Source: Octopus vulgaris
Lineage: Eukaryota
NCBI GenBank assembly: GCA_951406725.2
Contig: OX597817.1
Location: 26,412,001-26,476,000 of the forward strand
Direction: 5' to 3'
DNA length: 64,000 nucleotides
Of this stretch, positions 3,635-51,630 are shown one piece after another. The stretch's first letter is position 1, and the number at the start of each line of letters is the position of its first letter. Both the position numbers and the translations under genes were made by a program. The notes below the pieces were generated by a model. The model made no database searches and was not told the origin of the DNA. It was given only the letters and a program-made list of their open reading frames with translations.

Positions 3635-4054
3635 TATTTCGTTTTTGGATTTGGTTTGCAAAATTCTTTATATGAGTTCGTGTGTTGAAGCATATTCTGT
3701 TGTGTCTGGGGAGAGTCATTTTTTTTTGGTGCCTTATAATTTAACACACTCACCGGTAAAATTTCCACTTTCTTTTCTTACTTTTATTTTCCTAAAATTT
3801 TTGTTGCATCTTGCAACCTTTTCAATAGTCTTGACTCTATCCGTTATTTACACTGTGTTCCTTTTTGTTTGTTTGTGCACATGTGTGTGGGTCAGTGTGT
3901 GGCAGTGTAAATAATGGACAGAGTCAAGACTATTGAAAAGGTTGCAAGATGCAACGAAAATTTTAGGAAAATAAAAATAAGTGGAAACTTTACCAGTGAG
4001 TGTGTTACATTATAAGGCACAAAAAGAAAATGATTCTCCCCAGACACAACAGAA
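3635..4054 (-). mobile_element. Fold-back Penelope-type non-autonomous element (family C), copy 1
   Basis: Inverted arms 3692-3855 and 3903-4057, 47-nt spacer; TATCAAATTTAA flanks both ends (3623-3634, 4055-4066); second copy at 51238. Confidence 0.85.
3930..3966 (+). ncRNA. Minimal type-I hammerhead ribozyme motif, U3:A8 variant
   Basis: cta-TTGAAAA-g-GTTGCA aga TGCAAC-GAAA-at-TT-tag; stem III is the palindrome AATT. Mirror copy at 3792-3828 (-) has GAAA mutated to AAAA. Confidence 0.65.
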
Positions 4055-4708
4055 TATCAAATTTAAATTATTTTTTTAATAAAGGTTTCCTTTCACTGAC
4101 TTAAAGAGAGCAAGATGGATTGCACCAATGACTCTTTCAAGAGCCCCTTGACTGGCAAATGAAGGTAGAATGTCTCCTCAGATCAAAGACCATACTTAGT
4201 TGCTTGCAACAAAGTAGTCTCTGCTAAAGATATTTCATCTCTTTTTACCATAAAGTTGCCCAGAATAAGGTCGAAGAACTTCCAAATACAACGATCTTGA
4301 AACTGAAGCAGACAACATGTGATGCATAATATTATAAACAGTATGAATAATAACTGAAACATCAGGTAGGATAAAAAAGAATAGTAAGACTTCCAAATTG
4401 ACACATGGCCCACAAAATATCCCCTGCTAAACACAACTCACATCTTATGTCATTATATTTCTAATTCAGTTGTGCAACCCACAACTGCACAATTGTAGAA
4501 TTCATGCAACACACATGCAAGTGCCTCCTTATGATATTACACTACCCACTCAATATATATTTTACATGATCATCATCTAACATTTAATACATATACGAGA
4601 CATTTACTTCACAACAACATAGCACAACTTACAGGGTACATATTCTACACAACATAAATAATACTTAAGTAATACCAGAAACAAAACAAAACAAAACAGA
4701 CACATGCA

Positions 4709-4871
4709 GTTCTATATTTAAGAGATGAGGAATTATTTAAATTATTTACATTTGACGGATACCTTAGGAATGAAAACCCAGGTTCGAAATTTCCCCAAGA
4801 CACCTGATGAAGACTGAAGAGTATATCAACAAGATGTGGACAAATATCCCACAAATGTAAATAATGTAAAT
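4709..4871 (+). mobile_element. Short Penelope-type element (family F) with inverted 5' head and internally deleted hammerhead
   Basis: gacac-CTGATGA retained, GAAA half deleted relative to copies at 23418 and 41170; AAAACAGACACA at 4693-4704 and 4872-4883. Confidence 0.75.
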
Positions 4872-5061
4872 AAAACAGACACAATTCTAAACTCCCAAAA
4901 GATAATGTTTTGCACCACAAGAACACAGTTCATATGCTACTGTTGAAAACAGTAATTTACATATAATAAATGTGAGGAAGAACAAAGGAATGACTCATGA
5001 AAGAACTCCAAGAGTTGCGTAATCTGACCACAGTTTAGGAAAATATCCAAAGAAAGTTCTA

Positions 5062-5380
5062 GGCGTTCCTTCGTTTTAACTCAACAAAACCATAACAAGA
5101 CCTTGGCTGTTTCCATGACAACTCTACAATTCACTTCAGATATCTTCGTGTCCTCCAAACATACACACATGAAGCAGGTAAGAACAGATATGCAAGGCTT
5201 TTTGCTGGCATAATTTCGTTATATCTGTATTCCACAACACATAAATACATAAAAACAGAACACGCACAGTGTCACAGAGGTCACGAAGGTCACGAAGATA
5301 TCTGAAGTGAATTGTCGAGTTGTCATGGAAACAAACGAGGTCCTTGTTATGGTTTTGTCGAGTTGAAACGAAGGAATGCC
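5062..5380. mobile_element. MITE, Merlin-like DNA transposon derivative
   Basis: About 90-bp terminal inverted repeats (GGCGTTCCTTCG...CGAAGGAATGCC); 8-bp TSD AAGTTCTA at 5054-5061 and 5381-5388. Confidence 0.85.
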
Positions 5381-5924
5381 AAGTTCTATGTAAGATTTTA
5401 ATGAAAATATAGGTTACGGGAAAAACGTGGACCTGATGTAATAGAATAACATTTGGAACGAACTAAGTATATAAGCAAAGACATGGAGAATAAAATGCAT
5501 ACCAACCATAGATCAATCAATACCAATAAAAGAGAAGGAGGATAAATATATTAAGGACATTCTATAAACAAGTGGGCTACGTGAAATTACATTGAGAAAT
5601 GAGAGCCATTTGCAAATGAATCAAAGAAATAATAGTTAAGTATTTAAGGGAAAAGCATAAAACAATGCTGAAGGATATAACATGTGGAAACAGGATTGGG
5701 AATACAAAAAAAAAGAGAAATGAATATATTTACGCAAAAAAATCCTAAACGATCTCAAAAAATGATCAAGATTGATTTCGGGGTGTTTAAAGCGGAAAAA
5801 GTTTACAAGTATTTTCTCACCTTTGACACAGAATCTTGTTTAATGTACCATAGAATACGTGTCGTGGAAAACTAAGGAGTCACACTTTTTATACTAAAAG
5901 ATAAAATATCATATATATATTCCT

Positions 5925-6130
5925 TATTCTTTACTTGTTTCAATCATTTGACTGCGGCCATGCTGGAGCACCACCTTTTCGTCGAACAGATCGACCCCCT
6001 AGGATTTATTTTTTGTAAACCTAGTACTTATTTATTGATCTCTTTCATCAAACTGCTAAGTTACGGGGATGTAAACACACCAACATTGGTTGTCAAACGA
6101 AGGTGGGGGGACAAACACAGATACACACAA

Positions 6131-6192
<62 letters not shown>

Positions 6193-6612
6193 GAATGGAG
6201 TTGAACGACTAGTTAACAAATATCCTTTATTCTCGACATATGTTTCGAAGGCTGCATATTCTTAATTCCAAAGGAATAAGGAGTACATTATGCAGATTTC
6301 TCATCAGAAAAATCAAGGAACTTATGTCGACATCAAAATGCACAAAAAACTTTTAGCTGACCGCTCTCAAGGAGCCCATATATAAATACATTTATGTTGT
6401 GCAAGATTTCTTATGTGAAGTCGTGTGTTGAAACAAATATTGTTATATTTCGGAATGGTCATTTTGCCAGTTTAGCTCATCGACAGAATTCTTTCGGTTT
6501 CCATCTATCAAATCCATTCATGAGGATTTGGTCAGCCCACAACTATAGTAGAAGAGACTTGCCTAAGGTTCTACGCAGTAGGACTGAGTCGGGAACCATG
6601 TGGTTGGGAAGC
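5925..6612 (-). mobile_element. SINE A interrupted in its (TA)n tract by two Penelope-type fragments (6190-6378 and 6394-6478)
   Basis: 3' half at 5925-6140, 5' half at 6488-6612. Confidence 0.85.
6230..6312 (-). ncRNA. Type-I hammerhead ribozyme, canonical core, long stem II
   Basis: ttttt-CTGATGA-gaa..CTGCATA..TATGCAG..ttc-GAAA-catatg-TC-gagaa followed by AATAAA; GUC triplet; palindromic stem III ACATATGT. Confidence 0.8.
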
Positions 6613-7089
6613 TAAGATGAAGGGAATTCTTACAGTGACTATCCACACTTTTTCTCTGGCAGCAGATATTCCTGAATATATTATGCAGTGTGTTACTATT
6701 TACCTGTCGTGTTTGAAGGTGGTCATATGTGATTTACAAAATATTTGACTGCTTTTTATAGAATGTTGAGCAATTGTGTAGTGGTGGATTTATGTATTGG
6801 CTCAGGTTATCCCATGTGTACCACTAATAAGGATGCACTGATATGAATGATAGTTGATGGCATATACTTCCTGCTACACAAAAAAGATCTATCACCTTGG
6901 GAGGTGAAAGGAAACTGAAGGATACTGAATGTGACAAGAAACTTACTAGTATATTGGCAGAATGCTACTAGAAGAGGCAAATTGTACATTGACAGAATGG
7001 TACTAGAAAAGACAAACTTTAAAAGAATTACCAAGCAAGAAGCTGGACTATCTACCAAAAAGCATATGGTATAATCATGCGATGTTTGA

Positions 7090-7308
7090 AGGCGGTGAGC
7101 TGGCAGAAACGTTAGCACACCGGGCGAAATGCGTAGCCGTATTTCGTCTGCCGTTGCGTTCTGGGTTCAAATTCTGCTGAGGTCGACTTTGCCTTTCATC
7201 TTTTCGGGGTCGATAAATTAAGTACCACTTACGCACTGGGGTCGATGTAATCGACTTAATCCGTTTGTCTGTCCTTGTTTGTCCCCTCCTTGTGGGTAGT
7301 AAAGAAAT
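7090..7308 (+). mobile_element. SINE family B
   Basis: Full head and AAAGAAATA tail; CATGYGATGTTTGA TSD. Confidence 0.9.
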
Positions 7309-8102
7309 ACATGTGATGTTTGATATCAATAATGGAATAAATTTTTCATATCAATACAGGAATAAAACCTTATTGGGATGAACATGAACTTGGTGACTCA
7401 ACTTAAATGTGACATGTGGGAAGAATTTACAGCAAATAGAAAATTCAGTGTATCACTATTTCTGCTATTACAAAAAATATTTTAATCTGCATTTATTATA
7501 TATTTCAAAAGATCAAAACAAGATACTTAGCCATGAATAACAAATCAATAATGTAATATCCCATGATAATTATTAATCAAAACTAGTAAGGAGATGGCTG
7601 TAATCTTGGTTTATTCAGTCAGGATTTGAAGTAGTAACATCGAAAGGTATTTTGATGCTTCTTCTTATGTGATTATAAAAGGAAGGAGAGTAATGAAATA
7701 TAAATGGATCGCTTACTTTTGGTTGCAATGTAAAACCAAATGTTGCATATATTTGCTTGTTACATGATGACGAAAGGAAAAAGAATGCAAGACAAATCTC
7801 TCGGGCATTCAAATGTTATTCCAGTTGTTGTTGTTAAGAGGAAAGTCAACTATAACTGAGCCTGTATTAACCATCATATAAAACTTTTAAGATATGATTT
7901 ATCAGAGACTACATTATCTAATGTATCCTTCATATAAGACAGTAGGTTATGATTTGAAGAAAACTTGGCTGCTATTTTTGGTTGGTTGAATGAATCCTAT
8001 TTTAATTGTCGTAGATGTCCTGGACAGATTATCAAAACAGCTACTTAAGTAACTTTGACTTATTTAAATTGTGAGCCAGATTATGGAAAATATATCTTCT
8101 AT

Positions 8103-8501
8103 AGGCGTAGGAGTGGCTGTGTGGTAAGTAGCTTGCTTATGAACTACGTGGTTCTGGGTTCAGTCCCACTGCATGACACCTTGGGCAAGTGTCTTCTACT
8201 ATAGCCTTGAGCCAACCAAAGCCTTGTGAGTGGATTTGGCAAACAGAAACTAAAAGAAGCCGGTCGGATATATGTGTATGTGTTTGTTTATGTTTGTATG
8301 TCTGTGTTTGTCCCCTTCCCAACATCGCTTGACAATCGATATCCCCGTAACTTAGCAGTTTGGCGAAAGAAACTGATACAACAAGAACTAGGCTTACAAA
8401 GAATAAGTCCTGGGGTCGATTTGCTTCGACTAAAGGCGGTGCTCCAGCATGGCCACAATCACATGACTGAAACAAGTAAAAGAGAATAAAGAGTAAAGAG
8501 T
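8103..8501 (+). mobile_element. SINE family A
   Basis: Matches 19-419. Confidence 0.9.
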
Positions 8502-8544
8502 ATCCTGTAAGAAAGAATCCTTAAAAACAAGGAGCCTGTTCCTT

Positions 8545-8768
8545 CCTTATGTATTAGCTTGAAATTTTGGCAGAAGGCCAGCAATTTTGGAGGAGGGGTA
8601 AATCAATTACATCACTCCCAGTGCTCAACTGGTACCTATTTTATCAACTCTGAAAGGATAAAACACAAAGTTAATTGCAGCAGAATTTGAACCCAGAACA
8701 TAAAGCTGGATTAAATGTCACTAAGTATTTTGGCCAGTGTGCTAATGACGTTGCCAGCTCACCACCAT
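8545..8768 (-). mobile_element. Degenerate SINE B'
   Basis: Recognisable central domain and head. Confidence 0.75.
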
Positions 8769-10653
8769 TCCTTCCCTATATATTAAGGCATTAATTCTGT
8801 GCTATCATTGATCTAGAACAGAATTATATTGATAAGTACTTTAGCTCCTAACTAAAACATTAATATACTGAAGGAGAAGAAAAAAAAATACTGACAGCTA
8901 ATCAATCTAACTAATAGAATATTAGTAAACCGTTCTCCAAAATATTCTGTAATAAGGTGACAGAACATTTGGCAATTCACCAAATAATTAGAGTAAAGCA
9001 GAACGAGGGTAAAACAAAGTTCTAGAAACAGCTGACAACTCCATATTAAGAAATAATGATGTAAAATTAAAAAACAGAAACTTGTCATGTTTGGGTGAGC
9101 TGATTATAAAACAAAAAGCTCTTTAATTGAATCTCATAAATCTAGAAAGTTTTCAAATATCAGAATATTCTGATGAACATCTTATGTTAGGAAAGTGGCA
9201 TAAAGTTCAGTAAACCATTTAGGAGTATAAACAGGAATAAATGTAATAATTCAATTATCACTGTACTTGCAAAATTCTTACAAGTTATTAGGTTAAATTT
9301 CACCAGCTGAAATCTAAAGCTAAAGTAGAGAATAAAATGAACTTACAAACATAAAACCAGAGAACTATAATGCATGCTAATAAAAGTAAACCTCGTATGA
9401 CAATGCTAGAGTTGAATATGTCACATAATAAAAATGAAACCCCTCTAAAAGAGAGAATTATCTAGAAGTAATTAAATCTCTTTGAGGCAGGTATCAGATG
9501 TATCTATCATATATAAACAGGACAACACTTCTAGTCATTTTGAGAACACATACAAGTCTTATATGAATCCCAAAATGATACCTAATATTTTGCAAGGCCA
9601 TTAAAGTGTAACCTTTGCAAACTGTAGTTGGAGGGGTGATAAAGTCTTAAATCCATTATGAAATCTATTTAAACTAACCATTCAGTTCTATTCCTTAAAA
9701 GATAAAATTATGTAACACCTTTTTAATCATCTACTTATTTTGGAAAACGCATTTAGTCTGGCTTGGGTGTACCAATCCCAATATAATCTTCCATTGATAT
9801 TTTTAAAAATAACTTTAGTCTGAGGAAAAGGAGCAAAGCACATGATATTTTTGAGGGCTCCTTTAGCAGGTAAGATGAAAGGATTAAGTTTTCCTCAGCC
9901 TGGAGCTTGAGCTGAATGCCTACAACAGAATGAACTCTGCTAAAGTCACACAAAGACAGTGATGTTAATCTCAAGATCAGGAAAGATCTCATCAGTGGGT
10001 CACTATTTAAAAATCAAATTTTTGTTTATCAAATTTCACTCAAATAGTTTTAGTCAACTGGTCAAGATTACAGCAATAGCCTAAACAATATTATTGAGAA
10101 AGGAGGTTTTCTCAACTACACAATTAAGCCTGCACCCATAGTAGTAATATTAACTGTCTGTATCACCAGACACATGGGAAGTGAGAAACTACAAAGAAAT
10201 TTTGCTGACAGAACTATAGTGGAACCATATTGTAATATGCAATAGGTTTACAAGCTTTCTCATAATTTTCCATTTTCGTTTTTTCACTGGTAAATTCAGA
10301 AGATATGCATTCATTTGTTTAAAGAAAATGACAGCTTATCAAAAATGTAAAACTAAGTTCCAGAAAATATTAATACAAGAGTCAAAAAATCTTGATTAAG
10401 CAGCCTAGATTACTAAAGTTATCTAAAAAGACATACAGTTAAGAATATCTAATTTAAAATCAGAATTGCTTTCAGTTACCATGGGCAACAGTTCAACAGC
10501 TGTTCAGCTATTGCTGTCTTTAGCACCAGTTTCTTAAGTCATGATACAGCATTGCTACCAACTCCACAAGCATCAAATATACTTACTAGGTTTCTTATGC
10601 AGTAGTTGAAATTTCAAATACATACATACATGCTTACACACACATATATATAT

Positions 10654-10844
10654 AGGGAGAGTTTATGAAAAAAAACAAAAGATGAAGACAGGTGGTGTAC
10701 AAAACAAACAGATATATTAGTATAATGCTCAGGAATAGAAAAAGTCTTTTACGTTTCAAGCCTACGCTCTTCTACAGAAAGGTACACAGAAAAAACAAGG
10801 AGAGAAAAAAATGTGTGTAGTGGCTAACGATCTATCATGGCGAC
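10654..10844 (-). mobile_element. Short Penelope-type element in (TA)n
   Basis: Bounded by TA repeats, contains a hammerhead-like motif, shares TTCCTGAGC motif with 40440-40636. Confidence 0.65.
10746..10781 (-). ncRNA. Minimal hammerhead-like motif with A6U
   Basis: cttt-CTGTAGA-a-GAGC gtag GCTT-GAAA-cg-TA-aaag; stem III palindrome ACGT; GUA triplet. Confidence 0.6.
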
Positions 10845-10883
<39 letters not shown>

Positions 10884-11529: not shown

Positions 11530-11985
11530 GACACAAGGGTGGCTGTGGGATAAGAAGCTTGCTTCTCAACCACGTGGTTCTGTGTGGCACCTCTTTTACT
11601 ATAGCATCAGGTTGACCAAAACCTTGTGAGTGGATTTAGTAGATGGAAACTGAAAGAAGTCTGCCTTATATATATATATATATATAAATTAGAAAGAAAC
11701 ACACCTTTTATCAATTCAATAATGAAAAATTAAATTATACCATCTAGGAAATTACATATTATAGAAAGATTAAATATAACGATGATTAAGTAATGTGCAA
11801 AATAATAAATAAAACGTATATATTTGGTAGAATAACGTTTTATTTATTATTTTGCACATTACTTAATCATCGTCATATGTTTTATCTTACATTTAATCTT
11901 TCTATAATATGTAAATTTCTAGATGATATAATTTAATTTTTCATTATTGAATTGATAAAAGGTGGTTTTTTCTAATTTTTATTTA

Positions 11986-12370: not shown

Positions 12371-12828
12371 AAGATTAAAACCTCAACATCACCTTACATA
12401 TCCCGATATAGCGTATTTAAAATATATCAACCAGTTATCATTAATAGCATAATATAATCAATAAATTATTGTTTCCTCTAAATAAATTTCATGCAATCAT
12501 ATTTTCTAGATATTCTTCCTTACTAAATAAGTTTACTGTTAAAATTATTTGTTTTGAAAAATTTAACAGATGTAACAAGTCTTAGGATTACATTTGATAA
12601 ATTTATGAACTTAACAATGCATACTAGACGATAATGGAACAATATTATATTGTAAAATAGTTCAAGAAAAGAAAAAACAAATGGTACTTTATAATCGACT
12701 ACTTTGATTTATACATTTGCCAATTTCGGTTCTTTCCTTTTATAATTGTCTTCTCTAAATGCAAAAATATTGAAAAACTATAAAGTAATTTTGTTATTGG
12801 TCATTCATATTAGATAATAAATAACATA

Positions 12829-13216
12829 GGCATAGGAGTGGCCGTGTGGTAAGTAACTTGCTTACAAACCATACGGTTCCGAGGTCAATCCCACTGCATG
12901 GTACATTGGGCAAGTGTTTTCTGTTACAGCCTCAGGCCAACCAAAGCATTGTGAGTGGATTTGGTAGATGGAAACTGAAAGAAGCCCGTCGTATATATGT
13001 ATATATGTTTGTGTGTCTGTGTTTGTCCCCCCAACATTGCTTGACAACCAATGCTGGTGTCCTTACGTCCCCGTAACTTAGTGGTTCGGCAAAGGAGACT
13101 GATAGAATAAGTACTAGGTTTACAAAGAATAAGTCCTGGGGTCGATTTGGTTGACTAAAGGTGGTGCTCCAGCATGGCCGCAGTCAAATGACTGAAACAA
13201 GTAAAAGAGCAAAGAG
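12829..13216 (+). mobile_element. SINE family A
   Basis: Matches 19-419. Confidence 0.9.
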
Positions 13217-19671: not shown

Positions 19672-19704
<33 letters not shown>

Positions 19705-19710
19705 CACATA

Positions 19711-19893
19711 GGTGTAGGAGTGGCTGTGTGGTAAGTAGCTTGCTTACGAACTACATGGTTCCGGGTTCAGTCCCACTGAGTGGCACCTTGGGCATGTGTC
19801 TTCTACCATAGCCTCGGGCCAACCAAAGCCTTGTGAGTGGATTTGGTAGAAGGAATCTAAAAGAAGCCTGTCGTATGTATATATATATGTATA
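19711..19893 (+). mobile_element. SINE family A, 5' half
   Basis: Ends in the (TA)n tract. Confidence 0.85.
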
Positions 19894-20244
19894 TTTGAAA
19901 ACATAAATTATTGGTTTGGTCCTGAGGTGTGCATTTAATCTACCAGGATAACTTAGGCTCTAAGCATGTATAGAGCAACTAACTTTGAAGATAGAGAACT
20001 CTAATAGGGAAGCCTGAGTTATGTTGTTGATTGAGCTGGTGGTATACATTTTCACCAAATTTCTGCTATGAGCATTTCCAGAATATGTAGCTGATGCTGC
20101 ACAAGTCCTTACCTCTGAAAATAAAGCACTTGTGCAAGTGGTCTAACCTCTAGAGGCTATTGGACCTTAATATCTATCATTCATGTAGTGTTTGTCGGAC
20201 CTATTATTATTATTGTTATTATTGTTATTATTATTATTATAATT

Positions 20245-20449: not shown

Positions 20450-21483
20450 TATTAGTGATTCGATTGTAAGATATTTTATTGGTTGAACGATATTTCAACA
20501 GTAAGTCTGTCTTTGTCAAGTTCAAAATAACAAGTGATAAAAATTCAAAATTATATAAATTTAAATGTAAAGTATGAACGAGAGCAACCAGTGTCCACAC
20601 GTTGATGGAATGACATCATCAGTTTTTAAGTTACAATTTTATAACAAACGAAAAGAAAAAGACAGAAAAAAAACAGAAAAAAGGAGAAATAAAGAGAGAA
20701 AGAAGAATATTATTCAAACATTTTTATATAAATTTGATGATATTCTCCTGTCATCTTATTCATTCCTCCAGGGCATAATGTTAATAACCCGCAAGCATAT
20801 TTCTCCTCATACATTCTGAGAAGTGAAAGTGAAGCAGATTCAGAATATTTTCTGAGAATATGCACTTTCAAGTCTTCTTCAAAATTGCAGCCGCTTGAAA
20901 CGAAATGTTCAGAAAGTTCTGTTGAACTACTGTTATTGTGCCTAACATCGAATGTGTCCATTAAACTTTGTACAACCAATATAATTTAAGTTTTGTTTCA
21001 TGCATTCTGCAGCGTACACCAAATGGGTGCCTTTACATGTTCCACCTTCTGTATAAATCATAAAAGAAATGTTATGATTTCGGATGGAATTCACTTCATT
21101 CATGTTGTTGCAGACGCTTGAAACGAAATGTTCAGAAAGTTCTGTCGAACTACTGTTATTGTGCCGGACGTTCATTCTGTGCCCATTAATCCTTTTGTTT
21201 AATTGTTCTGTTGTAACAACCAACATAAATTAATTTGTGTTTTGTGCATTCTGCAGCGTACACCAAATGCGTATCTTTACATGTATAAATCTTTACAGAA
21301 ACGTTATGATTTCTGATGGAATTCACTTCACTCATGTTGTTGCACAATGAACAGGGCTTACTCCTCTTGCGGCTGTTCTTTAAGGTTCGTTTTCTTGGAG
21401 TCTGATATAGAGGTCAATAATTCTCTTATATTCTTACTCCGTCTAAAGGCTACAATAGGCGGCTGAGGAAATATCTGTTTGAA
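20450..21483 (-). mobile_element. Inverted 3' arm (pseudo-LTR) of a Penelope-like element, with an internal duplication of the GIY-YIG segment
   Basis: Reverse complement of 22033-22829; LVYAAEC motif present twice. Confidence 0.9.
20483..20525 (-). ncRNA. Minimal type-I hammerhead ribozyme, U3:A8 variant
   Basis: TTGAAC-TTGACAA-a-GACAG actta CTGTT-GAAA-ta-TC-GTTCAA then AATAAA; 6-bp stem I; AUC triplet. Confidence 0.8.
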
Positions 21484-22829
21484 GGATCTGGGAAGGATCA
21501 CAGGATAGTTTAATGGACTTCTTGCATTTCTGTGACTGTTATACTAGAAACTATAGCTTTAAGTCCAGCATAAAATTTACGTATAATTTTTCAAAAACTA
21601 GCGTTGAATTTTTAGACACAAAAGTCAAGTTTTCTGGAGGCAAAATAGAGACAGAGTTACTTTGCAAGTCCACGTCATCCCACATTTCTCTTCTCCGCCA
21701 CTCTGATCATCCACATCATCTTATTCTCTCAAATCCGAAATCCCAATTTTTGAGGATAAAACGGATTTGTACTTCATAGGGGATTACTGGAAACATGTAA
21801 ATGCTTTTGTATGTCATTATGTCAAACATAGTTACAGTGAATCACAATTAAAGGAAATAGCAAATGAAATAGCTAATACTAGCAAAGATAGTCAAACCTA
21901 CACGCATAATTTTAGCAAACACAATACAATAGATGACAGAATTCCTTTAGTGATTAGCTGGCACCGATATTTCGCTGGCATTTCAAAAGTGTTGCATGAA
22001 AGTTACCAGCATGTGGCGAAAAAAATCCTCGTTTCAAACAGATATTTCCTCAGCCGCCTATTGTAGCTTTTAGACGGAATAAGAATATAAGAGAATTATT
22101 TACCTCTATATCTGACTCCAAGAAAACAGACATTGGAGTATCTGCACGCTGTACCTTAAAGAACAGCTGCAAGAGAAGTAAGCCCTGTTCATTGTGCAAC
22201 AACATGAGTGAAGTGAATTCCATCAGAAATCATCACATTTCTGTAAAGATTTATACAGAAGGCGTAACATGTAAAGATACCAATTTGGTGTACGCTGCAG
22301 AATGCACAAAACACAAATTAATTTATGTCGGTTGTTACAACAAAACAATTTAACAAAAGGGTTAATGGGCACAGAATGAACGTCCGGCACAATAACAGCA
22401 GGTCGACAGAACTTTCTGAACATTACGTTTCAGGCGGCTGCAATTTTGAAGAAGACTTGAAAGTGCATATTCTCAGAAAATATTCCGAATCTGCTTCACT
22501 TTCACTTCTCAGAATGTATGAGGAGAAATATGCTTGCGGGTTATTAACATTATGCCCTGGAGGAATAAGATGACAGGAGAATATCATCAAATCATCTTCT
22601 TTCTTTTCCTTTTATTTTTTTTCTGTCGTTTTCGTTTTTCTGCTTTTTTTCTGTCTTTTTCTTTTCGTTTGTTATAAAATTGTAACTTAAAACTGATGAT
22701 GTCATTCCATCATCGCGTGGACGCTGGTTGCTCTCGTTTACATTTAAATTTCTATAACTTTGAATTTTTAACACTTGTTATTTTGAACTTGTCAAAGACA
22801 GACTTACTGTTGAAGTATCGTTCAACCAA
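21484..22829 (+). pseudogene. 5'-truncated Neptune-type Penelope retroelement: RT C-terminus/thumb, Cys-rich linker, GIY-YIG endonuclease, 3' UTR
   Basis: SVEFLD, SDHPHH..SQFLRIKRICT, PPIVAFRRNKNIRE, C..SCKRSKPCSLC, LVYAAEC..IY.G...RVNGHR, LLTLCPGG; frameshifts and stops. Confidence 0.9.
22783..22825 (+). ncRNA. Mutated copy of the U3:A8 hammerhead
   Basis: Same stems as 20483-20525 but TTGTCAA and GAAG in the core. Confidence 0.65.
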
Positions 22830-22896
22830 CAAACGAACCACGCTCTTCGTCTTGACTCTTTATCTTTGTGAAGGGTTAAGTCAATCCTTTTTAAGA

Positions 22897-22935
<39 letters not shown>

Positions 22936-23417: not shown

Positions 23418-23586
23418 GTTCTATATTTAAGTGATGAGGAATTATGTACATTATTTACATTTGATGGATATTTGTCCTCATTTTGTTTCTTGTTAACACA
23501 GCGTTTCGGCTGATATACCTTTCAGCATTCATTAGGTGTCTTGGGGAAATTTTGAACCTGGGTTCTCATTCCTAAGGTATTTTTCG
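23418..23586 (-). mobile_element. Family F Penelope-type short element with degenerate hammerhead (23495-23540)
   Basis: gacac-CTAATGA..CAGCC-GAAA-cg-CT-gtgtt; homologous to 41170-41345. Confidence 0.75.
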
Positions 23587-35916: not shown

Positions 35917-36127
35917 TTACGGAGATGTACTCACATAGCAAGTGATTTGATCTGAGATCGTGTGCTGGAACGAAAACAATTGCAGTGTGGAAGGTGTTTG
36001 TAAGCCATTTAAGAAACACACAAAAGCCGTTCGATTCACTTCAACATTTAAGTTTAATTTGTCAAAATATTTTCGTCGCTAAAATCCGCGACCTGTTCAC
36101 TGACAAAAATCCGTCCTACATCTGTAA
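35917..36127 (-). mobile_element. Short Penelope-type element in (TA)n with short inverted termini
   Basis: TTACGGAGATGTA...TACATCTGTAA ends; contains a hammerhead fold. Confidence 0.7.
36058..36107 (-). ncRNA. Minimal type-I hammerhead ribozyme motif, G3:C8 variant
   Basis: TTTGTCA-GTGAACA-g-GTCGC ggatttta GCGAC-GAAA-atat-TT-TGACAAA; perfect 7-bp stem I and 5-bp stem II; palindrome AATATT. Confidence 0.75.
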
Positions 36128-37172: not shown

Positions 37173-38456
37173 ACTACAAATACATGTATGAAGTTAAATT
37201 GAAAAGGTAGCTGCAACTGTGCAAGATAATTGATAAGAAATTATGAGAAAATATTACTTGTTTATATATATATTTATTGTCAGAAGAAAAAAGGGCATCA
37301 TCCATGACCCACATCTGGAACTCCAAGATTGGTAAGATGAAGAGCAGAAGTAATTCTAAAACCAGAGACATAGCTGGGATACAAAAAGGGCTACTTGACA
37401 ATATTAAAGTAGGTAATACATTAAGTCTGCCTCTCAAAAACAAAAATAGTCTCTGTGATGAGTTTTTACACAGTATTTTTCTTGCAAATTTTATTCACAA
37501 AAGTCTGGCTGATTCAATTGTGTAGTAGAAGGTACTTGCTTTAGTTTCCACATTGTAAGATCAAACTTGAAATTCCTTAGTGACAATGTAAGATCTATAA
37601 TATGTTTGTAGTTCCTGTAGCAGCCTGCTAGTTGAGGGAAACTACTCTGCTAAGCTAGAAGATTCTTGAATTGTCATTTAAAACAGATATTACATTTTCC
37701 CCTTGAGTACAGGCTTTAAGATATTTATCTCAGTGCTCTAACATGGAAATATAATAAACATCCTTTCTGAAACACAAACAAAAGATATTCTAAAATCTTG
37801 TCTCCAAGAGAAGACATATCCCCCTCATCCTATTTAAACCAGGAAAAAGAGTACAGAGGTTAACAATTGTTACAATAAATCATTTCAAAGTAAGCATGAG
37901 TTATTGATGTCTTCCATAATATGGAATAATGATTTCAGTATTTTATGAAGTTTTTTAACGATCATCTGTTCCTTTGGGGTAACATAGGTTAGAAGATATT
38001 GTATATTTCAATACATTCATGTCTATTTGGAACAAGCATTCTCCAGGAAAATGCCATGCCCAATAGCAGTCTAACACTCAATCATAAAATAGCTGGACAT
38101 AAGAAAGAAACTTGTCTCGCCTCAATTTACAATTCCTTGCTAGTTGTAAGATGTGATTTCATGACCTCTGTGCCAATAATCAGATATATTAATCTATCAG
38201 CTAGCCCGAAGCAGCATAGTTTTTATGAATAACTTTTATTACATCATTTTAACCATTTCTGAGAAACTAAACTGGAAAATAGAAAGGTATATTATATTTA
38301 TATTTCATCTATGTACAATAATGCTTTTATCTCTTTTAATTTTTAGAAAACCCCCAATCTTTTGTACTCCTAGTTAGTTCATTCATATCTTATAGTTTTG
38401 TTAATTTATATGAAATATAAGTTACAAATATTAGGATTTTCCTTATAATAATAAAT

Positions 38457-38622
38457 AGGTGCAGGAGTGGCTGTGTGGTAAGTAGCTTGCTTACCAACCA
38501 CATAGTTCCAGGTTCAGTCCCACTGTGTGGCACCTTGGACAAATGTCTTCTACTATAGCCTCGGGCCGACCAAAGCCTTGTGAGTGGATTTAGCAGATGG
38601 AAACTGAAAGAAGCCTGTTGTG

Positions 38623-38653
<31 letters not shown>

Positions 38654-38890
38654 GTGTGTATATGTTTGTGTGTCTGTGATTGTCTATGATTGTCCTCCCC
38701 AACATCACTTGACAGCCGATGCTGCTGTGTTTACGTCCCTGTAACTTAGCAGTTTGGCAAATGAGACCAATAGAATAAGTACTAGGCTTACAAAGAATAA
38801 GTCTAGGGGTAAATTTGCTCAACTAAAGGCAGTGCTCCAGCATGGCCGCAGTCAAATGACTGAAACAAGTAAAAGAGAGAGTAAAAGAGA
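38457..38890 (+). mobile_element. SINE family A
   Basis: Matches 19-419. Confidence 0.9.
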
Positions 38891-39221: not shown

Positions 39222-39453
39222 ATATTTGTTTATTGCCCACAAGGGGCTAAACATAGAGGAGACAAACAAGGACAGAGAAAAGAATTAAGTCGATTACATC
39301 GACCCCAGTGCGTAACTGGTACTTTATTTATTGACCCCGAAAGGATGAAAGGCAAAGTCGACCTCAGCGGAATCTGAACTCAGAACATAGCGGTAGACGA
39401 AATACGGCTACGCATTTCGCCCGGCATGCTAACGGTTCTGCCAGCTCGCCGCC
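39222..39453 (-). mobile_element. SINE family B
   Basis: GAATRGTAAAACAATAT TSD. Confidence 0.9.
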
Positions 39454-40439: not shown

Positions 40440-40636
40440 AAGTTAATCCAAACAAGAAAACAAAAAGACAACAACGCAAGGATGGGGAACAAATAAAGTA
40501 TTATTGGACGCTCAGGAAAGAAGGGAAGAAGGAGGGTATGACATTTCGAGCAGAGCTCTTCGTTGGAAACATAGGAGAAAGAAAGATCCCGAGGTGGGAG
40601 GACAGAGGGAAAAAAAATGCAAGTGGTCTTCATGAG
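40440..40636 (-). mobile_element. Short Penelope-type element in (TA)n with decayed hammerhead (40536-40570)
   Basis: gttt-CCAACGA-a-GAGC tct GCTC-GAAA-tg-TC-atac; related to 10654-10844. Confidence 0.55.
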
Positions 40637-41169: not shown

Positions 41170-41345
41170 TTTCAAGTTCATTATTTACATTATTTACATT
41201 ATTTACATTATCTACATTCAACGGGTATTTGTCCTCATGTTGCTTGTTGTTAACACTATGTTTCGGCTGATATACCCTCCAAGCCTTCTTCAGGTGTCTT
41301 GGGGAAATTTCGAACCTGGGTTCTCATTCCTAAGGTATTTTTTGA
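41170..41345 (-). mobile_element. Family F Penelope-type short element
   Basis: Homologous to 4709 and 23418; abuts (TTA/TTG)n. Confidence 0.8.
41252..41298 (-). ncRNA. Minimal type-I hammerhead ribozyme, canonical C3:G8 core
   Basis: GACAC-CTGAAGA-a-GGCT..AGCC-GAAA-ca-TA-GTGTT. Confidence 0.7.
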
Positions 41346-41751
41346 TGTAATCATTATTATTATTATTGTTGTTGTTGTTGTTGTTGTTATTATTTTTATC
41401 GTTCCAGTTTTTTCTTATTGGGAACCACTGGTCCCGTAGTAAACTGATGCTCGTATGTGACGTTTGGCTTGGTTTCTCTGGTTGGATATCCTTCCTATCA
41501 CCACCAACTTCAAAGAATCTTTTCTTGCACGGTGGAGATGCATTTCCCCATAGCATCAAAACGGAAAAGATGAAGTAGTCCTTGAGGAAACAAGAGTAAA
41601 GAGACTTCACAATCCCAATCAACCATAAAATTGTTTTACATAATGCTAAATTTTTTATGATCTTGCTTATTTCCAACTAAATATTATTCTTATTATAACA
41701 TGTATATAATATATAAGAATTATATATAATATATAATTCTTATTATAACAT

Positions 41752-42118
41752 GTGTGGTAAGAAGTTTGTTTCCCAACCACTTGACTCCGGGTTCAGTCCC
41801 ACTGCATGACACCTTAGGCAAGTGTCTTCTACTGTGGCCTCAGGCCAACCAAAGTCTTGTGAGCGGATTTGGCTGACAGAAACTGAAAGAAGCCCATCAT
41901 GTGTGTGTGTATGTTTATATATATATATATATATATTTGTGTGTCTCTGTTTGTCCCCCACCATTGTTTGACAACTGATGTTGGTGTGCTTACATCCCTA
42001 GTAACTTAGCAGTTTGACAAAAGTGACCAATAGAATAAATACTAGGCTTATAAAGAATATGTCTTGAGGGTCAGTTTGTTCAGTCAGATGACTGAAACAA
42101 GTAAAAGAATAAAAGAAT
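41752..42118 (+). mobile_element. SINE family A
   Basis: Matches 19-419 with a 3' deletion. Confidence 0.85.
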
Positions 42119-44855: not shown

Positions 44856-45262
44856 CTCTTTTACTCTCTTTTATTTGTTTCAGTCATGTGACTGTGGCCA
44901 TGCTGGAGCACCACCTTTGGTCGAGCAAATCGACCCCAGGACTTATTCTTTGTAAGCCTAGTACTTATTCTATCGGTCTCTGTTGCCAAACTGCTAAGTG
45001 ACGCGGACGTAAGCACATCAGCATCAGTTGTCAAGCGATGTTGGGGGGTGGGACAAACACAGACACACAACCATATACACACACATACATGCATATATAT
45101 GACGGGCTTCTTTCAGTTTCTGTCTACCAAATCCACTCACAAGGCTTTGGTCAGCCTGAAGCTATATTAGAAGACACTTGCCCAAGGTGCCACGCAGTGG
45201 GACTGAACCCGGAACCATGTAGTTCGTAAGCAAGCTACTTACCACGCAGCAACACCCACACC
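44856..45262 (-). mobile_element. SINE family A
   Basis: Reverse complement of 19-419. Confidence 0.9.
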
Positions 45263-46058
45263 TTTTATGTTATGGAGAATTATTTCTGTATTTGCAAACC
45301 ATTTGAAGCCAAATTTGAATATCACAACAAAGCTTGAAATGTTGAAATGTAACTGTATAAAAATATAACAATACAAAAATAATAATTAGCATATAAGGTG
45401 TGAGTGTTGCTGCATGGTAAGTAGCTTGCTTATGAACTACATGGTTCCGGGTTCAGTCCCACTGCGATTTGCTCGACCAAAGGCGGTGCTCTTATTGGAC
45501 ATTCGTTTAATGTGAAGTAAATGGATTCTCTACCAGTTTTGTTGATAAGTATTCTCACTCTTTAATCAGATTTTACACTTAAATCAAATCACTTAATAAA
45601 CTTATAATTAGCAGTGTATTCCACAAACATGTCCAAGTAGAATTGGTGTTACAAAACTGGGTCTTCGAATTTCTGATACATTCTAATTGACAGGCATCCG
45701 TGCAGTTTATGTCTATCCAATTTTGCCTGGTACGTTTGAGTTCAGCCAAGGCTACACCTCATGATTGCAAGGCAAAATTCTTAAGAATTCAGTCATGCCT
45801 ATACTCACGTGTTCATTTAAACACTCACGCACACACATGCATACACACACATGCATACACACACATGTGCATGCACATTCCACATCACACACACCCCACA
45901 TCACACACCACGCAAACACATATAAGCACACAAACACACATATATATATGTCCACAATTAAACTCATGTAAAAAGCCACACACATGCACAAAGCCATTTC
46001 AGTAGAAACATTGAGATCACAGAAGCCATTGAGAAATTTCAGGCAGTGAAGCATAAGT

Positions 46059-46283
46059 GGAGGCACGTGGCTTAGTGGTTAGGGTATCAGCACCATGATT
46101 GTAAGATTGTAGTTTCGATTCCTGGACCGGGCGATACATTGAATTCTTGAGCAAAACACTTCATTTCACGTTGCTCCAGTCCACTCAGCTGGCAAAAATG
46201 AATAACTCTGCAATAGACTGCCGTCCCATCCAGCTGCGGAACACATACGCCATAGAAACTGGGAAACTGGGCCCATGAGCCAG
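46059..46283 (+). mobile_element. SINE head G plus tail V
   Basis: TGGCTTAGTGGTTAGG head; tail homologous to 42820-42900. Confidence 0.8.
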
Positions 46284-46734
46284 GGTGCATTTATATTAAA
46301 TGGCAGTGCATCAGCATGGCCACAGCTCAGAGCTGAAACTAGAGAGAAAAATAAAATGAAATTTACTCCTGCTGTACATAGGTATACTAAGGGAACTGTG
46401 AGCAACTAAGTGCTGTAGCTCATGATCTTGAAGTATTTGTAATCAAGGACCCATCGGACCATAGAGCTATTCTCCTGCAAGGTCTCAGATGCTCCCTGGC
46501 AAAACATGAATTCTGTATCAAACATTCAACATATTTGTCCATCATAAACAAGAACAATCTTGTAATAGCTTTACTAAGATATACAGCCAACAATAGAAAC
46601 CAAATTTCAAAAGTTAATCCATAAACAAATTGTGTTGAACATGTGAATAAAAAGTGAAAAATCTAAACACATTAATAGAGAATTAGCTGTATGTAGATCA
46701 TGCTTACAAAGTCAGAAAACAGCACAGCTCCCAT

Positions 46735-47022
46735 GACTTTCGGAAATATTTTTTCATGCTAAGACTTGCTGAAGTATGGAACAAACTGCCAGCATCAATT
46801 GTTAGTTGTCAGAGCACTGCATCCTTCAAAACTTCCATGCTTCCTGAGATTTGCCAACACTGCACCTAATTTTCTCCCATTCATGCACACGCAAGCATGT
46901 ATCTGACTCATACACTGTTCACTTCCAAGACATTTGTACATTATTGCATATGCTTTATATGCACTTTTGACAAGTTGTGGTGTACCTGAGCACTGTGTAC
47001 AATAATTTCATTATTATTATTA
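46735..47022 (+). mobile_element. CR1/L2-type LINE 3' end
   Basis: AEVWNKLPASIVSCQSTASFK; (ATT)n tail. Confidence 0.75.
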
Positions 47023-47239
47023 TAAAATATATCAGATTAATTCAGAAAAGTGAAATGGCTCAGTGAATACATATGGCTTTTACAGGGCTTAAAAAAAGTG
47101 GAGGATTGCTGCAATAAGTGTGTATATCCGAGAGGGGAATATGTTGATCCTCCTGTATTTTCTTATATACAAAGCCAGGAACTTTTCTGTACCACCTTGT
47201 ATTGTTCATCCTAAGTAATAATATTTGTAACAATCCCTC

Positions 47240-47602
47240 TCATCCTTTGGGGGTTGATCGGTTCATCTTTTCAGGGTTGATAAATTAAGTACCTATTTCT
47301 TTACTACCCACAAGGGGCTAAACACAGAGGGGACAAACAAGGACAGACAAATGGATTAAGTCGATTACATCAACCCCAGAGCGTAACTGGTACTTAATTT
47401 ATCGACCCCGAAAGGATGAAAGGCAAAGTCGACCTCGGCGGAATTTGAACTCAGAAAGTAACGGCAGACGAAATACGGCTACGCATTTCGTCCGGCGTGC
47501 TAATTGATAAATTAAGTACCAGCTGCGTACTGGGGTCGATCTAATCGACTGGCCCCAACCTCCACCAAAATTTTGGGCTTTGTGCCTTGAGTAGAAAAGA
47601 AT
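47240..47602. mobile_element. SINE B' fragment (+) carrying an antisense SINE B (47294-47503)
   Basis: 17-bp TSD TTGATAAATTAAGTACC. Confidence 0.9.
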
Positions 47603-48654
47603 ATTTGTAACAATCAGACCACTCTTCATTCCTTTGTTTGTGTCAATAAATTAATAGTGGCTGAAATTTTAATAAATTTCATCAGATCTAACCTGGCTAC
47701 CTTCTTTCAGCTAATACAGAGATGATGAAAATATTAATGCCCCAACAACCAACATATAAAAGAAGCAACATAATAATTAAGAAAAATATTTGGTCTCACT
47801 AGAATGTTTGCTTGGCTATTTTTTTTTTTTTTTATTCATTTACACTTCATTTTATTTATTTACTAATTGCAAACGAATACAGAACTTGGTAGAAAGAACA
47901 CCTGGAAAATTCTCCATTATGTTGTGTGGAAAGCTTTTATTTAGAAAGCTTAGCAATTAATCTGTAATATCAAATACTCTGATACATTATTTATTCTTTC
48001 AGACTGTCTACTGTTTTGCTTCAACAGAGCTATAAATCCAGTGTAGATGTCAGTGTGTAACTGAATGAACATATTGGTGCTTCAGAATAAATATGTATAT
48101 ATGTGCTTCTATGTTGTAAGTATAAGCTAGACATATTAAAGCATATATGAAAGAGTGTGTGTGTGTGTGCATTGTTATTCAGCTGTGTGAATAATGTGCA
48201 CTTGGGTCTCTAAATGTGTACACATGCATATCTATCGACAGGTATAAATACATGTGCGTTTAAGTGTGACCGGGTTTATGATGAGTGTGCTTGTATGTTA
48301 TATCTACTGATGTGTATACTTCGAAAATTTACATATATGCAGCCATCCATGTGTGATGTGTAAGCACAAACATGATCATTAATACATCAGTAATATGCTG
48401 ATATGAATTCTATATAAAAATACAAGCCTCCATATTTACCCAATTTTAAAATATTTATATTCATTATAATAGTATCAATACATTATTGTACTGCTCACAA
48501 AGAAAAGGGATGGAACTAATAAATACTGAGATAAAAAGATAGAACAGCATATACTGAATAGGAGATCTACAGATACTGACTAAATACTAGAGGACTGGTT
48601 TCATTATTCTGTTCACATCAGATGTTCAAACTAGGTAATTCAATCAAAGCAGTG

Positions 48655-49047
48655 TCATCATCATCATCATCATTGTTCGACCATGGTCGAGACAATGGAA
48701 TTTACCATGCTACGCCAGACTTCACGGTCCATCACGGTCCAACAGGTCCTGTTGCTGGATACCTGTATCCCTGGAGATTACATCAGGGTAGGAGAGTGTG
48801 CACCCTCTGGTATTGCAAGTAGATGGCTTCCAGAGGAGAAGAGTAGAAATTGCCTCGTTTTCAGCTCTACCACAATGGCCAGCAAACTGGACTCTCCTCC
48901 CTTTCACAAGAGATGACACCGGTGGTAGTTTCCCATATATTTGCATTTTGGTTGGATGACGCTTCCACGAGAGATTTTGAGCTCTCATAAGGAGGCGAGT
49001 GTAGGTTCCATCCAACCGCCTCTCAAGCTTCTTTGATAACGTCCAGT
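48655..49047 (-). mobile_element. RTE-like LINE 3' fragment
   Basis: DGTYTRLLMRAQNLSWKRHPT...RRVQFAGHC; (GAT)n tail. Confidence 0.85.
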
Positions 49048-49610
49048 GAAGTACACTGTCATAACATGATTTTGGAATAGTTCACTCTTTATCCATGTTT
49101 TGATGGGATTTACAAAGATGCTTGCCATCTCATTTAAATTTGTGTGCCCCTTACACTTTTATTTGTCTGGAATTACAGTATTTATGAAGATCATTTTGTC
49201 CAGTTATTTCTGCGACTGTTGTGGTTCTTATTACTACTATAATGAATTTTCATATTTTCACTATTTTCTTTGGCACCTGTTACAGTTGTTGTTGAGGCCA
49301 ATGTTAAAGCCTTTAAACGTTACATTCCATAGTTAAAACATTTCAATACTCTTTTATCCCTTCCCTTAGCTTTATCATCAAACCTACAATAAACAGTTTA
49401 TTATTTCAGCCATGTCTAGGATATTGTTATATTTTCCAAGGAAGGACTTACTGCATTTTGTAATCTGTATGTTCTTAGTTTAAATCATACCAGATTCCCT
49501 TTGCCTGTCATCCTTCAGAGATCGTTAAAATAAGGACCAGTGAACTTCTGAGCTATAAACAATTGATATAACATGCACTTATCCCAAATGGGTGACCTTG
49601 TACCTATACC

Positions 49611-49840
49611 TATTTCTTTAGTGCCCACAAGGGGCTACACACAGAGGGGACAAACAAGGACAGAGAAACGGATTAAGTCGATTACATCGACCCCAGTGCG
49701 TAACTAGTACTTATTTAATCGACCCCGAAAGGATGAAATGCAAAGTGGACCTCGGCGGAATTTGAACTCAGAACATAGCCGCAGACGAAATACGGCTACG
49801 CATTTCGCCCGGCGTGCTACCGATTCTGCCAGCTCATCGC
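49611..49840 (-). mobile_element. SINE family B
   Basis: 15-bp TSD CCTTGTACCTATACC. Confidence 0.95.
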
Positions 49841-50149
49841 CCTTGTACCTATACCATTCTGGGACACCTCCTTCAAGGTTTTAGTAAATCAAATTGATCC
49901 CAGCATTTATTTTAAGCCTGGTTCTTTTTCTATCAATCACTTTTTGCCAAACCACTACGTTACAAGAATGTAAAGAAAAAAAAATTAGTGAAACATTAGT
50001 AAGTACAGATTCATCACGGCAAAAGAACTTGGGTTACAACGTATTCTTTAAAGAATTATTATGTTTGAAATATTATATAAAATGTAATATGTTCATGTAT
50101 ATGTTGTACAACTCCAGTATATAACTGGTATACTAGTGCTTATTTTATT

Positions 50150-50399
50150 AACATGTAAAAAGCACCATCCGTCCGTGGCCATTTGCCAGCTCCGTCTGGC
50201 ACCTGTGCGGGTGGCACGTAAAAAGCACCCACTACACTCACGGAGTGGTTGGCGTTAGGAAGGGCATCCAGCCATAGAAGCACTGCCAGATCAGACTGGG
50301 GCTGATGCAGCCTTCTGGCTTCACAAACCCCAGTTGAACCGTCCAACCCATGCTAGCATGGAAAGCGGACGCTAAATGATGATGATAATGATGATGATG
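50150..50399 (+). mobile_element. Retroposon family E
   Basis: Matches 16282-16525. Confidence 0.85.
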
Positions 50400-51237
50400 T
50401 ATAGTTGAATTGTAAAATGAACTGATCCCAGCCTTTTTATGTGCCAATACTGATGGAGTAAATAATTGCAGGGATAAGAAGAATAATTTTTATATATTTT
50501 TTCCATAAAGGAACAGATGAGAGATCATTACAAGTGAAACATTTTTGCAATGGATGGGGTTTATGCAGAATTGCTAATGAAAAATCTGGACCTTTAAAAC
50601 AACACTATGCAAAAGGAAGCAAATGCGACATCTCAAATAGAAGTGAACCCCAGAGGGCTTTTTGTGTAGGGGTCCCATGATTAGCCATTGAAGAACTAGG
50701 TATCTTAACTATCAAGGGCAAATACCTCATCCTAGCTATGACCTCTGGCCTACAGGTGCATGCTAAATGTAATATCATTCACCTGGGTCATTCTCATTGC
50801 TCCCATTCCCCACTTAGCATATTCACAGCCAGTACCCTCCTCTCAATTTTCATCTTCCTCACCAAATGGAACATAGAGAACTTGAGCGTTTGGTTGAAGA
50901 GAAAAATATCTAATATCAGTTTTATAAATCTTGCCCACCCTGCAGTTTGTTTTGCAATAATTTTTGTACATCACAAGACAACTGCCTGTCATTTCCAGTC
51001 AAAGGGGAGATCTGTAGCCTGTCTTCATACAAAACTCCACTGATTAAAAATAACAAGCCAAATATTTCTTTGTATGTTTGAATGAGGAGCATTATCAGAA
51101 CTTCAAATACATTTCACAAATTAGAACATCATTACATATTAATAATGACAACTAACTGAAACTAGGTAAACGATGGATGACAGTGAAATTTTTCTAAACC
51201 ACCAAACATTCACATTTCGATTAAATACTTATGAACT

Positions 51238-51630
51238 TTTTGTGCCTTATAATTTAACACACTCACCGGTAAAATTTCCACTTATTTCTTATTTTCATTT
51301 TTCTAAAATTTTCGTTGCATCTTGCAACCTTTTCAGTAATCTTGATTCTGTCTGTTATTTACACTGCTACATACTGACCCACACACATGCGCACAAACAA
51401 ACAAAAAGGAACGCAGTGTAAATAACGGACAGAGTCAAGACTATTGAAAAGGTTGCAAGATGCAATGAAAATTTTAGGAAAATAAAAATTAAAATAAATG
51501 GAAATTTTACCGGTGAGTGTGTCAAATTATAAGGCACAAAAAGAAAATGACTCTCTCCAGACACAACAGAATATGCTTCAACACACGAACTCATGTAAAG
51601 AATCTTGCAAACCAAATCCAAAAACGAAAT
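51238..51630 (+). mobile_element. Fold-back family C element, copy 2
   Basis: Arms 51238-51366 and 51414-51630; same 47-nt spacer as copy 1; AAATACTTATGAACT at 51223-51237 and 51627-51641. Confidence 0.9.
51441..51477 (+). ncRNA. Minimal hammerhead motif, U3:A8 variant
   Basis: cta-TTGAAAA-g-GTTGCA aga TGCAAT-GAAA-at-TT-tag. Confidence 0.6.

Follow-up and report, generated by a model that had tools for sequence, protein, structure and literature searches.

Hammerhead ribozyme motifs in Penelope-like elements of Octopus vulgaris: three Watson-Crick states of the 3:8 core pair in sister families, with probable selection for the active fold

The minimal hammerhead ribozymes of metazoan Penelope elements (Cervera and de la Pena 2014, PMC4209133) are the closest described counterparts of the motifs treated here, which lie in a stretch of 64,000 nucleotides from Octopus vulgaris (assembly GCA_951406725.2, contig OX597817.1, positions 26,412,001 to 26,476,000, forward strand), hereafter called the window. 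According to the passages of that paper that deal with them, these ribozymes share with the octopus motifs a type I layout, an extra base (9/10.1), the pair G10.1-C11.1 and a palindromic stem III, and their elements share the place of the hammerhead in a terminal repeat, mostly single dispersed copies and some pairs on opposite strands. The pair U3-A8 was reported there for Schistosoma mansoni (approximately 1,300 hits); U3:A8 in Penelope hammerheads is thus already known, and a preliminary description of the window overstated the case in this respect. The text and alignment passages of the same paper, however, contain only CUGA and UUGA cores, no G3-C8 and no octopus sequence, and do not describe three states within a clade. 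Several octopus Penelope-like families, as described here, carry putative minimal type I hammerheads in their terminal repeats; in three sister families among them the 3:8 pair is C:G, U:A and G:C, likely through selection on the source elements for the active fold. For the G3:C8 version slow cutting is predicted, by a dimer or assisted by the protein of the element. The probability of this reading is put at about 0.68. We provisionally regard as new a natural G3:C8 family of high copy number, the presence of three paired states within a single clade, and cores that carry U6 or C9 throughout a family.

In the active hammerhead C3 and G8 form a pair, and the crippling change G8C is partly rescued by C3G (passages on this pair in PMC8495972 and PMC3088659). 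For a Penelope hammerhead, the cleavage sections of Frangieh et al. 2024 (PMC11167929), on the anole Poseidon element PAc, report that single changes abolish cutting, that the engineered combination C3G/G8C partly restores it, and that cutting took place only with protein; minimal Penelope hammerheads cut weakly as dimers and poorly in vitro, as stated in the corresponding part of PMC4209133. The portion of Perreault et al. 2011 (PMC3088659) concerned with core variants documents natural U3-A8 covariation, a viroid U4C and stems II of 2 bp, as found in the octopus set, but no natural G3-C8, A6U or A9C, and gives a rate below 0.1 per minute for A6C. Literature searches for natural G3-C8 or octopus hammerheads returned engineered swaps only, and one for a natural A6U hammerhead returned none. 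GUGAAC does not occur in a 2021 supplement, G3-C8 is not reported in the relevant passages of PMC6765202, PMC6155905, PMC13725137, PMC4918200 and bioRxiv 10.64898/2026.07.22.740005, and the part of a 2026 O. vulgaris repeat annotation that lists Penelope families leaves ribozymes unmentioned.

A hammerhead-shaped motif is present at all 12 positions for which one had been described (these positions being the low ends of the motifs), with the type I order of stem I, core, stem II, GAAA, stem III, UH and stem I. The 12 sites represent seven families (the labels F1 to F14 are those of this analysis) and nine insertions, because the sites 20519 and 22789, 3825 and 3933, and 51336 and 51444 form the opposite arms of three inverted pairs. 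The features are as follows, with the position of nucleotide 3 of the core given as N3.

36058..36107, minus strand: F9 hammerhead, core GTGAACA, G3:C8 (G3 at 36100, C8 at 36095), with a 7-bp stem I, an extra G, a 5-bp stem II, a 6-nt palindromic stem III and U17 at 36065; passes the strict descriptor given below
35918..36123, minus strand: short F9 copy consisting of the hammerhead, then probably the start codon and first approximately 30 codons of the element's frame (judged from likeness to the N-terminus region of F13), and a (TA)n end
20483..20525, minus strand: F4 hammerhead, core TTGACAA, U3:A8 (20519/20514), with a 6-bp stem I, a 5-bp stem II, ATAT as stem III and C17; passes the descriptor
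22783..22825, plus strand, N3 22789: second F4 hammerhead, core TTGTCAA, decayed (A6U, A15.1G); lies in the same insertion as 20519, in its opposite arm
20457..22934, no single strand: two F4 element ends paired in inverted orientation, with broken coding remnants of the GIY-YIG side at about 21654-22567(+) and 20713-21498(-)
3930..3966, plus strand: F5 hammerhead, core TTGAAAA, U3:A8 (3933/3938), with a 3-bp stem I, a 6-bp stem II, AATT as stem III and U17
3792..3828, minus strand, N3 3825: F5 hammerhead, core TTGAAAA, U3:A8, G12 missing; makes up the inverted pair 3635-4057 with 3933
51441..51477, plus strand, N3 51444: F5 hammerhead, core TTGAAAA, U3:A8; passes the descriptor
51303..51339, minus strand, N3 51336: F5 hammerhead, core CTGAAAA, C3·A8 mismatch; makes up the inverted pair 51236-51631 with 51444
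41252..41298, minus strand, N3 41293: F1 hammerhead, core CTGAAGA, C3:G8, stem III decayed; no coding frame seen
23495..23540, minus strand, N3 23535: F1 hammerhead, core CTAATGA, C3:G8, decayed (G5A, changes in stems II and III)
10746..10781, minus strand, N3 10777: F2 hammerhead, core CTGTAGA, C3:G8, with the family-wide U6 replacing A6; no coding frame seen
40536..40570, minus strand, N3 40566: F3 hammerhead, core CCAACGA, C3:G8, decayed copy of a family with mostly C4 for U4; no coding frame seen
6230..6312, minus strand, N3 6307: F12 hammerhead, core CTGATGA, C3:G8, with a long irregular stem II

The cores agree with those first described at seven of the 12 sites and differ at 10777, 22789, 23535, 40566 and 51336, the last being the C3·A8 mismatch. 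In place of a literal CUGANGA, F9 has GUGAACA, and F4 and F5 have UUGANAA; the extra base after position 9, G10.1-C11.1 and a palindromic stem III are present in all three of these families. A strict descriptor (N3 and N8 free, remaining core exact, stem I of at least 3 bp, stem II of at least 4 bp, palindromic stem III) passes five of the 12 motifs, namely 3933(+), 51444(+), 51336(-), 36100(-) and 20519(-), the other seven being decayed or carrying family-wide core changes. In 100 local dinucleotide shuffles of the window it found a mean of 0.07 matches and at most one. A slightly more stringent version was applied to a 400-kb sample from contigs C1-C8, made up of 40 stretches of 10 kb at even spacing, and found five matches, all paired (three U:A, one C:G and one G:C), as against 0.125 per shuffle in eight shuffles. 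Chance matches in AT-rich repeats would agree with the lack of any hammerhead family among 111 Rfam matches at E<=10 in the window, and with the short stem I of F5 (3 bp) and stem II of F6 (2 bp). They are hardly credible in view of the shuffled counts, of reversed-pattern controls near zero, and of the fixed place of the hammerhead behind Penelope-like frames in five families (F4, F5, F6, F9 and F13). The expectation that CUGANGA searches miss these variants was borne out, and it extends to Rfam.

The 3:8 states were then counted per family, with N3 and N8 free, in the 2.8-Gb assembly (227 contigs); counts out of 100 were made by eye among the matches listed (the first 100), which come from the first contigs. 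G3:C8 was found in 5,534 of 6,024 F9 matches (reversed control 0). A query from which the core was left out (140 bases downstream of the hammerhead, selected for the longer 3' end) led to 30 loci, almost all with the GTGAACA core. Among F9 contigs at least 85% alike, from four sequencing runs (four organisms), no alternative letter exceeded 5% at G3 or C8. Loop II differs between F9 subfamilies and G3:C8 is constant. U:A was found in 95 of the 100 F5 matches listed (626 in total), in 94 of 100 for F4 (246 in total), without any compensated double change at 3:8 in that family, and in 98 of 100 for F6, which lies outside the window (796 in total). C:G was found in all nine local copies of F1, in 96 of the 100 matches listed for F2 (16,679 exact-flank matches) and in 95 of 100 for F3 (11,827 matches); the five exact-flank matches of F12 are four C:G and one U·G. 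These are family norms and not decayed forms of CUGANGA, as had been proposed. The state A3:U8 was sought with a generic pattern, which gave 143 matches against 94 for the reversed control, nearly all stemless; its absence does not follow, because the pattern covers only a 4-nt stem III with extra purine.

Altogether, eight of the 14 families are C:G, five U:A and one G:C. All six non-C:G families are therefore paired, although single changes give mismatches, and reshuffling N8 among the 14 families gives p = 5.6e-5 for an all-paired outcome, the families not being independent and four of them resting on one to four copies. This count bears on the view that the hammerheads are vestigial in octopus, their cores founder accidents and their paired states products of drift. 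Mismatched and otherwise altered cores did multiply, as detailed below, and the passages of PMC8557442 on the related Naiad elements describe their spread without canonical hammerheads and allow that Penelope hammerheads may simply ride along. We consider drift improbable given the six paired families, the two transversions that G:C requires, and the covariation of stems I and II.

Several further observations concern families of this kind. A small repeat with an A3:U8-type core and GAAACAUC, and no clear stem II, makes up approximately 10 of the 100 A3:U8 matches listed, on contigs C3, C4, C6, C7, C9, C12 and C14. F6 (L053:2940-2985(-), L059-L087) is Penelope-like and abundant, with 23,145 first-look protein candidates; in its hammerhead, stem II measures 2 bp and stem I 7 bp. 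Extra families outside the window, with one to four copies each, are F7 and F8 (U3:A8) and F10 and F11 (C3:G8 with a long palindromic stem III; L009, L060, L144, L150, L152). Uncommon hammerheads that resemble those of F9, with different loops II and tails, perhaps represent more G3:C8 families (L182:300-370(-); contig C1 matches). A rule that position 17 avoids pairing with position 3 was considered and fails: F9 has U17, yet A17 occurs in families with U3.

The three states are best seen in F5, F9 and F13. The last is the family of the closest protein to that of F9 (58% identity) and has a C3:G8 hammerhead with an imperfect palindrome as stem III; its near-identical copies, with frames up to 1,312 amino acids (aa), make it the youngest family seen (copies 99% identical, L165-L170). 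The 3' ends of the three families are collinear, every pair scoring above all 2,000 shuffles, and their proteins are 44-54% identical over approximately 270 C-terminal residues. In a quick tree of 79 homologs they form one clade (support 98 in the Shimodaira-Hasegawa-like approximate likelihood ratio test, SH-aLRT), with F13 and F5 together (97); P0001 and homologs aligned over fewer than 230 residues were left out, and breaks in the F5 frame were represented by X. F4 and F6 lie far off on very long branches, where their placement is unsure, and U:A there probably has a separate origin.

An alignment of nine F5, F9 and F13 hammerheads is in register and has in the 3:8 column three CG, two GC, two UA and one other, row L092 having missed the core and contributing no letters at the counted pairs; two stem II pairs vary on both sides as well. 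As its rows are hand-picked and related, the figure of 0 of 500 shuffles obtained with it is not a probability. In the genome, the shared-stem-II pattern with G3 gave 7,513 matches, G:C in 95 of the 100 listed (reversed-pattern control 6), and with non-G3 it gave 10,665 matches, of which the 100 listed comprise 53 C:G, 35 U:A and 12 unpaired (control 2). On the evidence of these alignments and counts, positions 3 and 8 truly covary among F5, F9 and F13, and the pair that they make exists in the active fold alone. The preliminary description had placed the change in three independent families with unrelated stems and elements. Its three paired states stand, but F5 and F9 have a stem II in collinear position, the sequence downstream and the protein in common; since the states are shown best in related families, the covariation is stronger and less independent than was claimed.

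Regarding the host elements, coding frames lie upstream of the hammerhead in the GTGAACA, TTGACAA and TTGAAAA families, in agreement with the placement of these motifs at Penelope-like ends. The link between F9 and a coding frame was found in L105, L117 and L159-L164. F9 frames reach 1,025 aa and include a GIY-YIG domain at 25.4 bits (Pfam cut-off 22.6); in the 1,025-aa frame a reverse transcriptase, with a YVDD motif seen in the sequence, precedes GIY-YIG, and two homologs are named reverse-transcriptase-domain proteins, although Pfam gave no RVT_1 match for this frame. The hammerheads of F4, F5 and F13 are likewise linked to reverse-transcriptase/GIY-YIG frames. The linker before GIY-YIG reads CX3CX2C, the Neptune/Nematis definition being CX2-5CxxC, and the tree was made without named reference sequences. 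The best 150 matches of the F9 endonuclease span 100% to 80% identity, many at 98%. A GIY-YIG frame beside a G:C copy (L015/L053) was rejected as the F9 parent, as it belongs to F6 and has its own U3:A8 hammerhead. No coding frame was found for F1, F2, F3, F12 and the other families in approximately 0.9 Mb of local sequence, so that the assignment of F1, F2, F3 and F12 to Penelope-like elements rests on layout. By eye, an 814-aa frame at L053:7458-9899(-) has reverse transcriptase, RNase H and integrase-like motifs of the type found in retrotransposons with long terminal repeats (LTR).

Partial tandem repeats, a feature of Penelope-like elements, are present. Copies are also truncated on the 5' side, occur as incomplete copies in inverted orientation and stop at either of two 3' ends, all of which the corresponding part of PMC8557442 gives, along with a tail of 30-40 bases, as marks of such elements. 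Animal non-LTR retrozymes, as characterized in parts of PMC7229834 and bioRxiv 10.64898/2026.07.22.740005, likewise have type I hammerheads and consist of non-coding repeats related to Penelope terminal repeats, but they form tandem arrays, whereas the octopus motifs belong to the ends of coding elements, which are scattered, truncated on the 5' side or inverted. The retrozyme label first given to them was dropped, the copies running into coding frames and not being tandem non-coding monomers.

The ends of F9 copies were mapped in 48 segments from the 30 loci. Their 3' ends cluster at +113 to +129 (17 segments) and +176 to +188 (31 segments) from G3, approximately 55 bases apart and within the first 30 codons that follow an ATG at +92. 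The resulting tail of approximately 55 bases exceeds the 30-40 bases given for published Penelope-like elements in PMC8557442. As described in the element sections of PMC11167929, anole PAc resembles F9 in a repeat that overlaps the start of the frame and in two internal reverse-transcription starts, from which its tail arises. It differs in that its hammerhead is C3:G8, G3:C8 having been engineered, and in that its start codon lies inside the hammerhead, whereas that of F9 lies approximately 90 bases past G3. At the 5' side, 25 of the 48 segments start at -25 to -19 from G3, and three extend into the upstream region. These starts, 19-25 bases before G3, fall at an AG that resembles either a splice acceptor (with a CTAAC branch-point-like sequence upstream) or an initiator (TCAGAT; L162:5897-5943, window 36120-36123). 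A transcription start at this AG is preferred to a splice acceptor because no shared upstream exon was seen. Inverted F9 junctions centre on the stem III palindrome, as if folded back there (L093, L104, L115).

Several results weigh against the preferred reading and against strict selection for cutting. No F9 segment (0 of 48) starts or ends at the predicted cut site, +36 from G3; five alignments stop at +27, at fold-backs across the palindrome where exact placement is impossible. These F9 copies appear to derive from uncut RNA, which is also the main template of the anole element; in the experiments covered by those passages, insertion in vitro needed no cleavage and no RNA reads ended at the site (PMC11167929). 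Core changes without compensation characterize whole families: U6 replaces A6 in 96 of the 100 F2 matches listed (of 16,679), and C4 replaces U4 in 74 of the 100 F3 matches listed (of 11,827). In F13, C9 replaces A9 in 37 of the 43 rows of this family among the matches listed and at all six loci with near-identical long frames, A9 copies being the minority. C3:G8 was sought in one loop subfamily of F9, that with a loop of 9 nt; it contains 85 G8 matches, of which 82 are G3·G8 and none is C3:G8, next to 26 with A8 and 59 with T8; the excess of G8 over A8 has p = 1.7e-8. By nearest-neighbour energies, in a model that leaves core contacts unscored, the double hammerhead is less stable than other dimers in F9 (-27.2 vs -31.3 kcal/mol), F4 (-11.6 vs -19.6 kcal/mol) and F5 (-6.2 vs -17.1 kcal/mol). 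The clade tree, finally, comes from a quick search only.

From the excess of G8 over A8 and T8, a mismatched source seems to have multiplied, as an intermediate or an offshoot. The four G3·G8 copies examined (L184-L187) look older, and three of them share other changes; the set is possibly a relic of a step between C:G and G:C.

The family-wide U6, C4 and C9, kept together with C3:G8, suit the idea that a compact fold is retained for a non-cutting task (binding of the element's protein, translation start or positioning of reverse transcription), with 3:8 as a structural contact and cutting slow or incidental. So do the copies that never end at the cut site and the dispensability of cleavage in vitro in the part of PMC11167929 cited, as well as the F2 core CUGUNGA, in which N7 varies (44 T, 25 A, 20 C and 11 G of the 100 matches listed) and the rest is fixed, a sign of constraint despite U6. 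Against this stand the retention of G12, A13, A14, A15.1, U16.1 and a non-G position 17 in these same families, the place of the 3:8 pair in the active conformation (PMC8495972 and PMC3088659, in the passages named above), and the anole hammerhead, which does cut with protein (PMC11167929, same sections). We regard a purely structural role as unlikely, though well above drift. The preferred reading remains that the source elements were selected for the active fold: the pair looks selected, but, given uncut copies, core changes and folding energies, cutting is not required in each round of transposition. The earlier statement that selection on catalysis is implied is accordingly retained for the pair and weakened for catalysis, the core changes, G3·G8 and the in-vitro dispensability of cleavage standing against it.

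Under the preferred reading, the terminal repeat would serve as the 3' end of one unit and the 5' untranslated leader of the next, with the hammerhead approximately 90 bases ahead of the start codon. Reverse transcription would begin at two sites within the first 30 codons, giving the two 3' ends, and would read through the uncut hammerhead. In some fraction of transcripts, the palindromic stem III may join two hammerheads, with cleavage then following position 17. Sources keeping the 3:8 pair would be favoured over family time through intermittent selection, by which a Watson-Crick pair is restored over that time while elements with imperfect cores still multiply. The change from C:G to U:A could go through a U·G wobble, and a U·G core does appear in the 2014 alignment (PMC4209133, alignment passage); that from C:G to G:C would need a mismatched step.

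Two more dispersed repeat families of approximately 220-230 bases, SINE-like (short interspersed nuclear element) by size, are present in the window:

9-227, 8096-8314, 12821-13039, 19703-19921, 38450-38668 and 41729-41947: SINE-sized repeat, first family
781-1195, 39223-39453, 47294-47524 and 49611-49841: SINE-sized repeat, second family

For the search of hammerheads, these results mean that descriptors should free positions 3 and 8: the shared-stem pattern alone yields 18,178 matches, most of them outside CUGANGA. Natural counter-cases (U6, C4, C9 and G3·G8) and young elements with long frames occur in one genome, which makes the question testable with natural sequences. Switching of an active-fold pair between three Watson-Crick states in sister families is evolutionary evidence of selection on the fold. 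A more far-reaching version, which we hold only tentatively and consider more doubtful than not, is that the natural G3:C8 core works in more than 7,000 copies, that a young lineage moved between C:G, U:A and G:C by way of the surviving G3·G8, and that cutting, assisted by the protein of the element, extends to the U6 and C9 families with their tens of thousands of copies. If this were true, the consensus would greatly understate how plastic the natural hammerhead core is, and animal genomes would contain a large hidden set of ribozymes.

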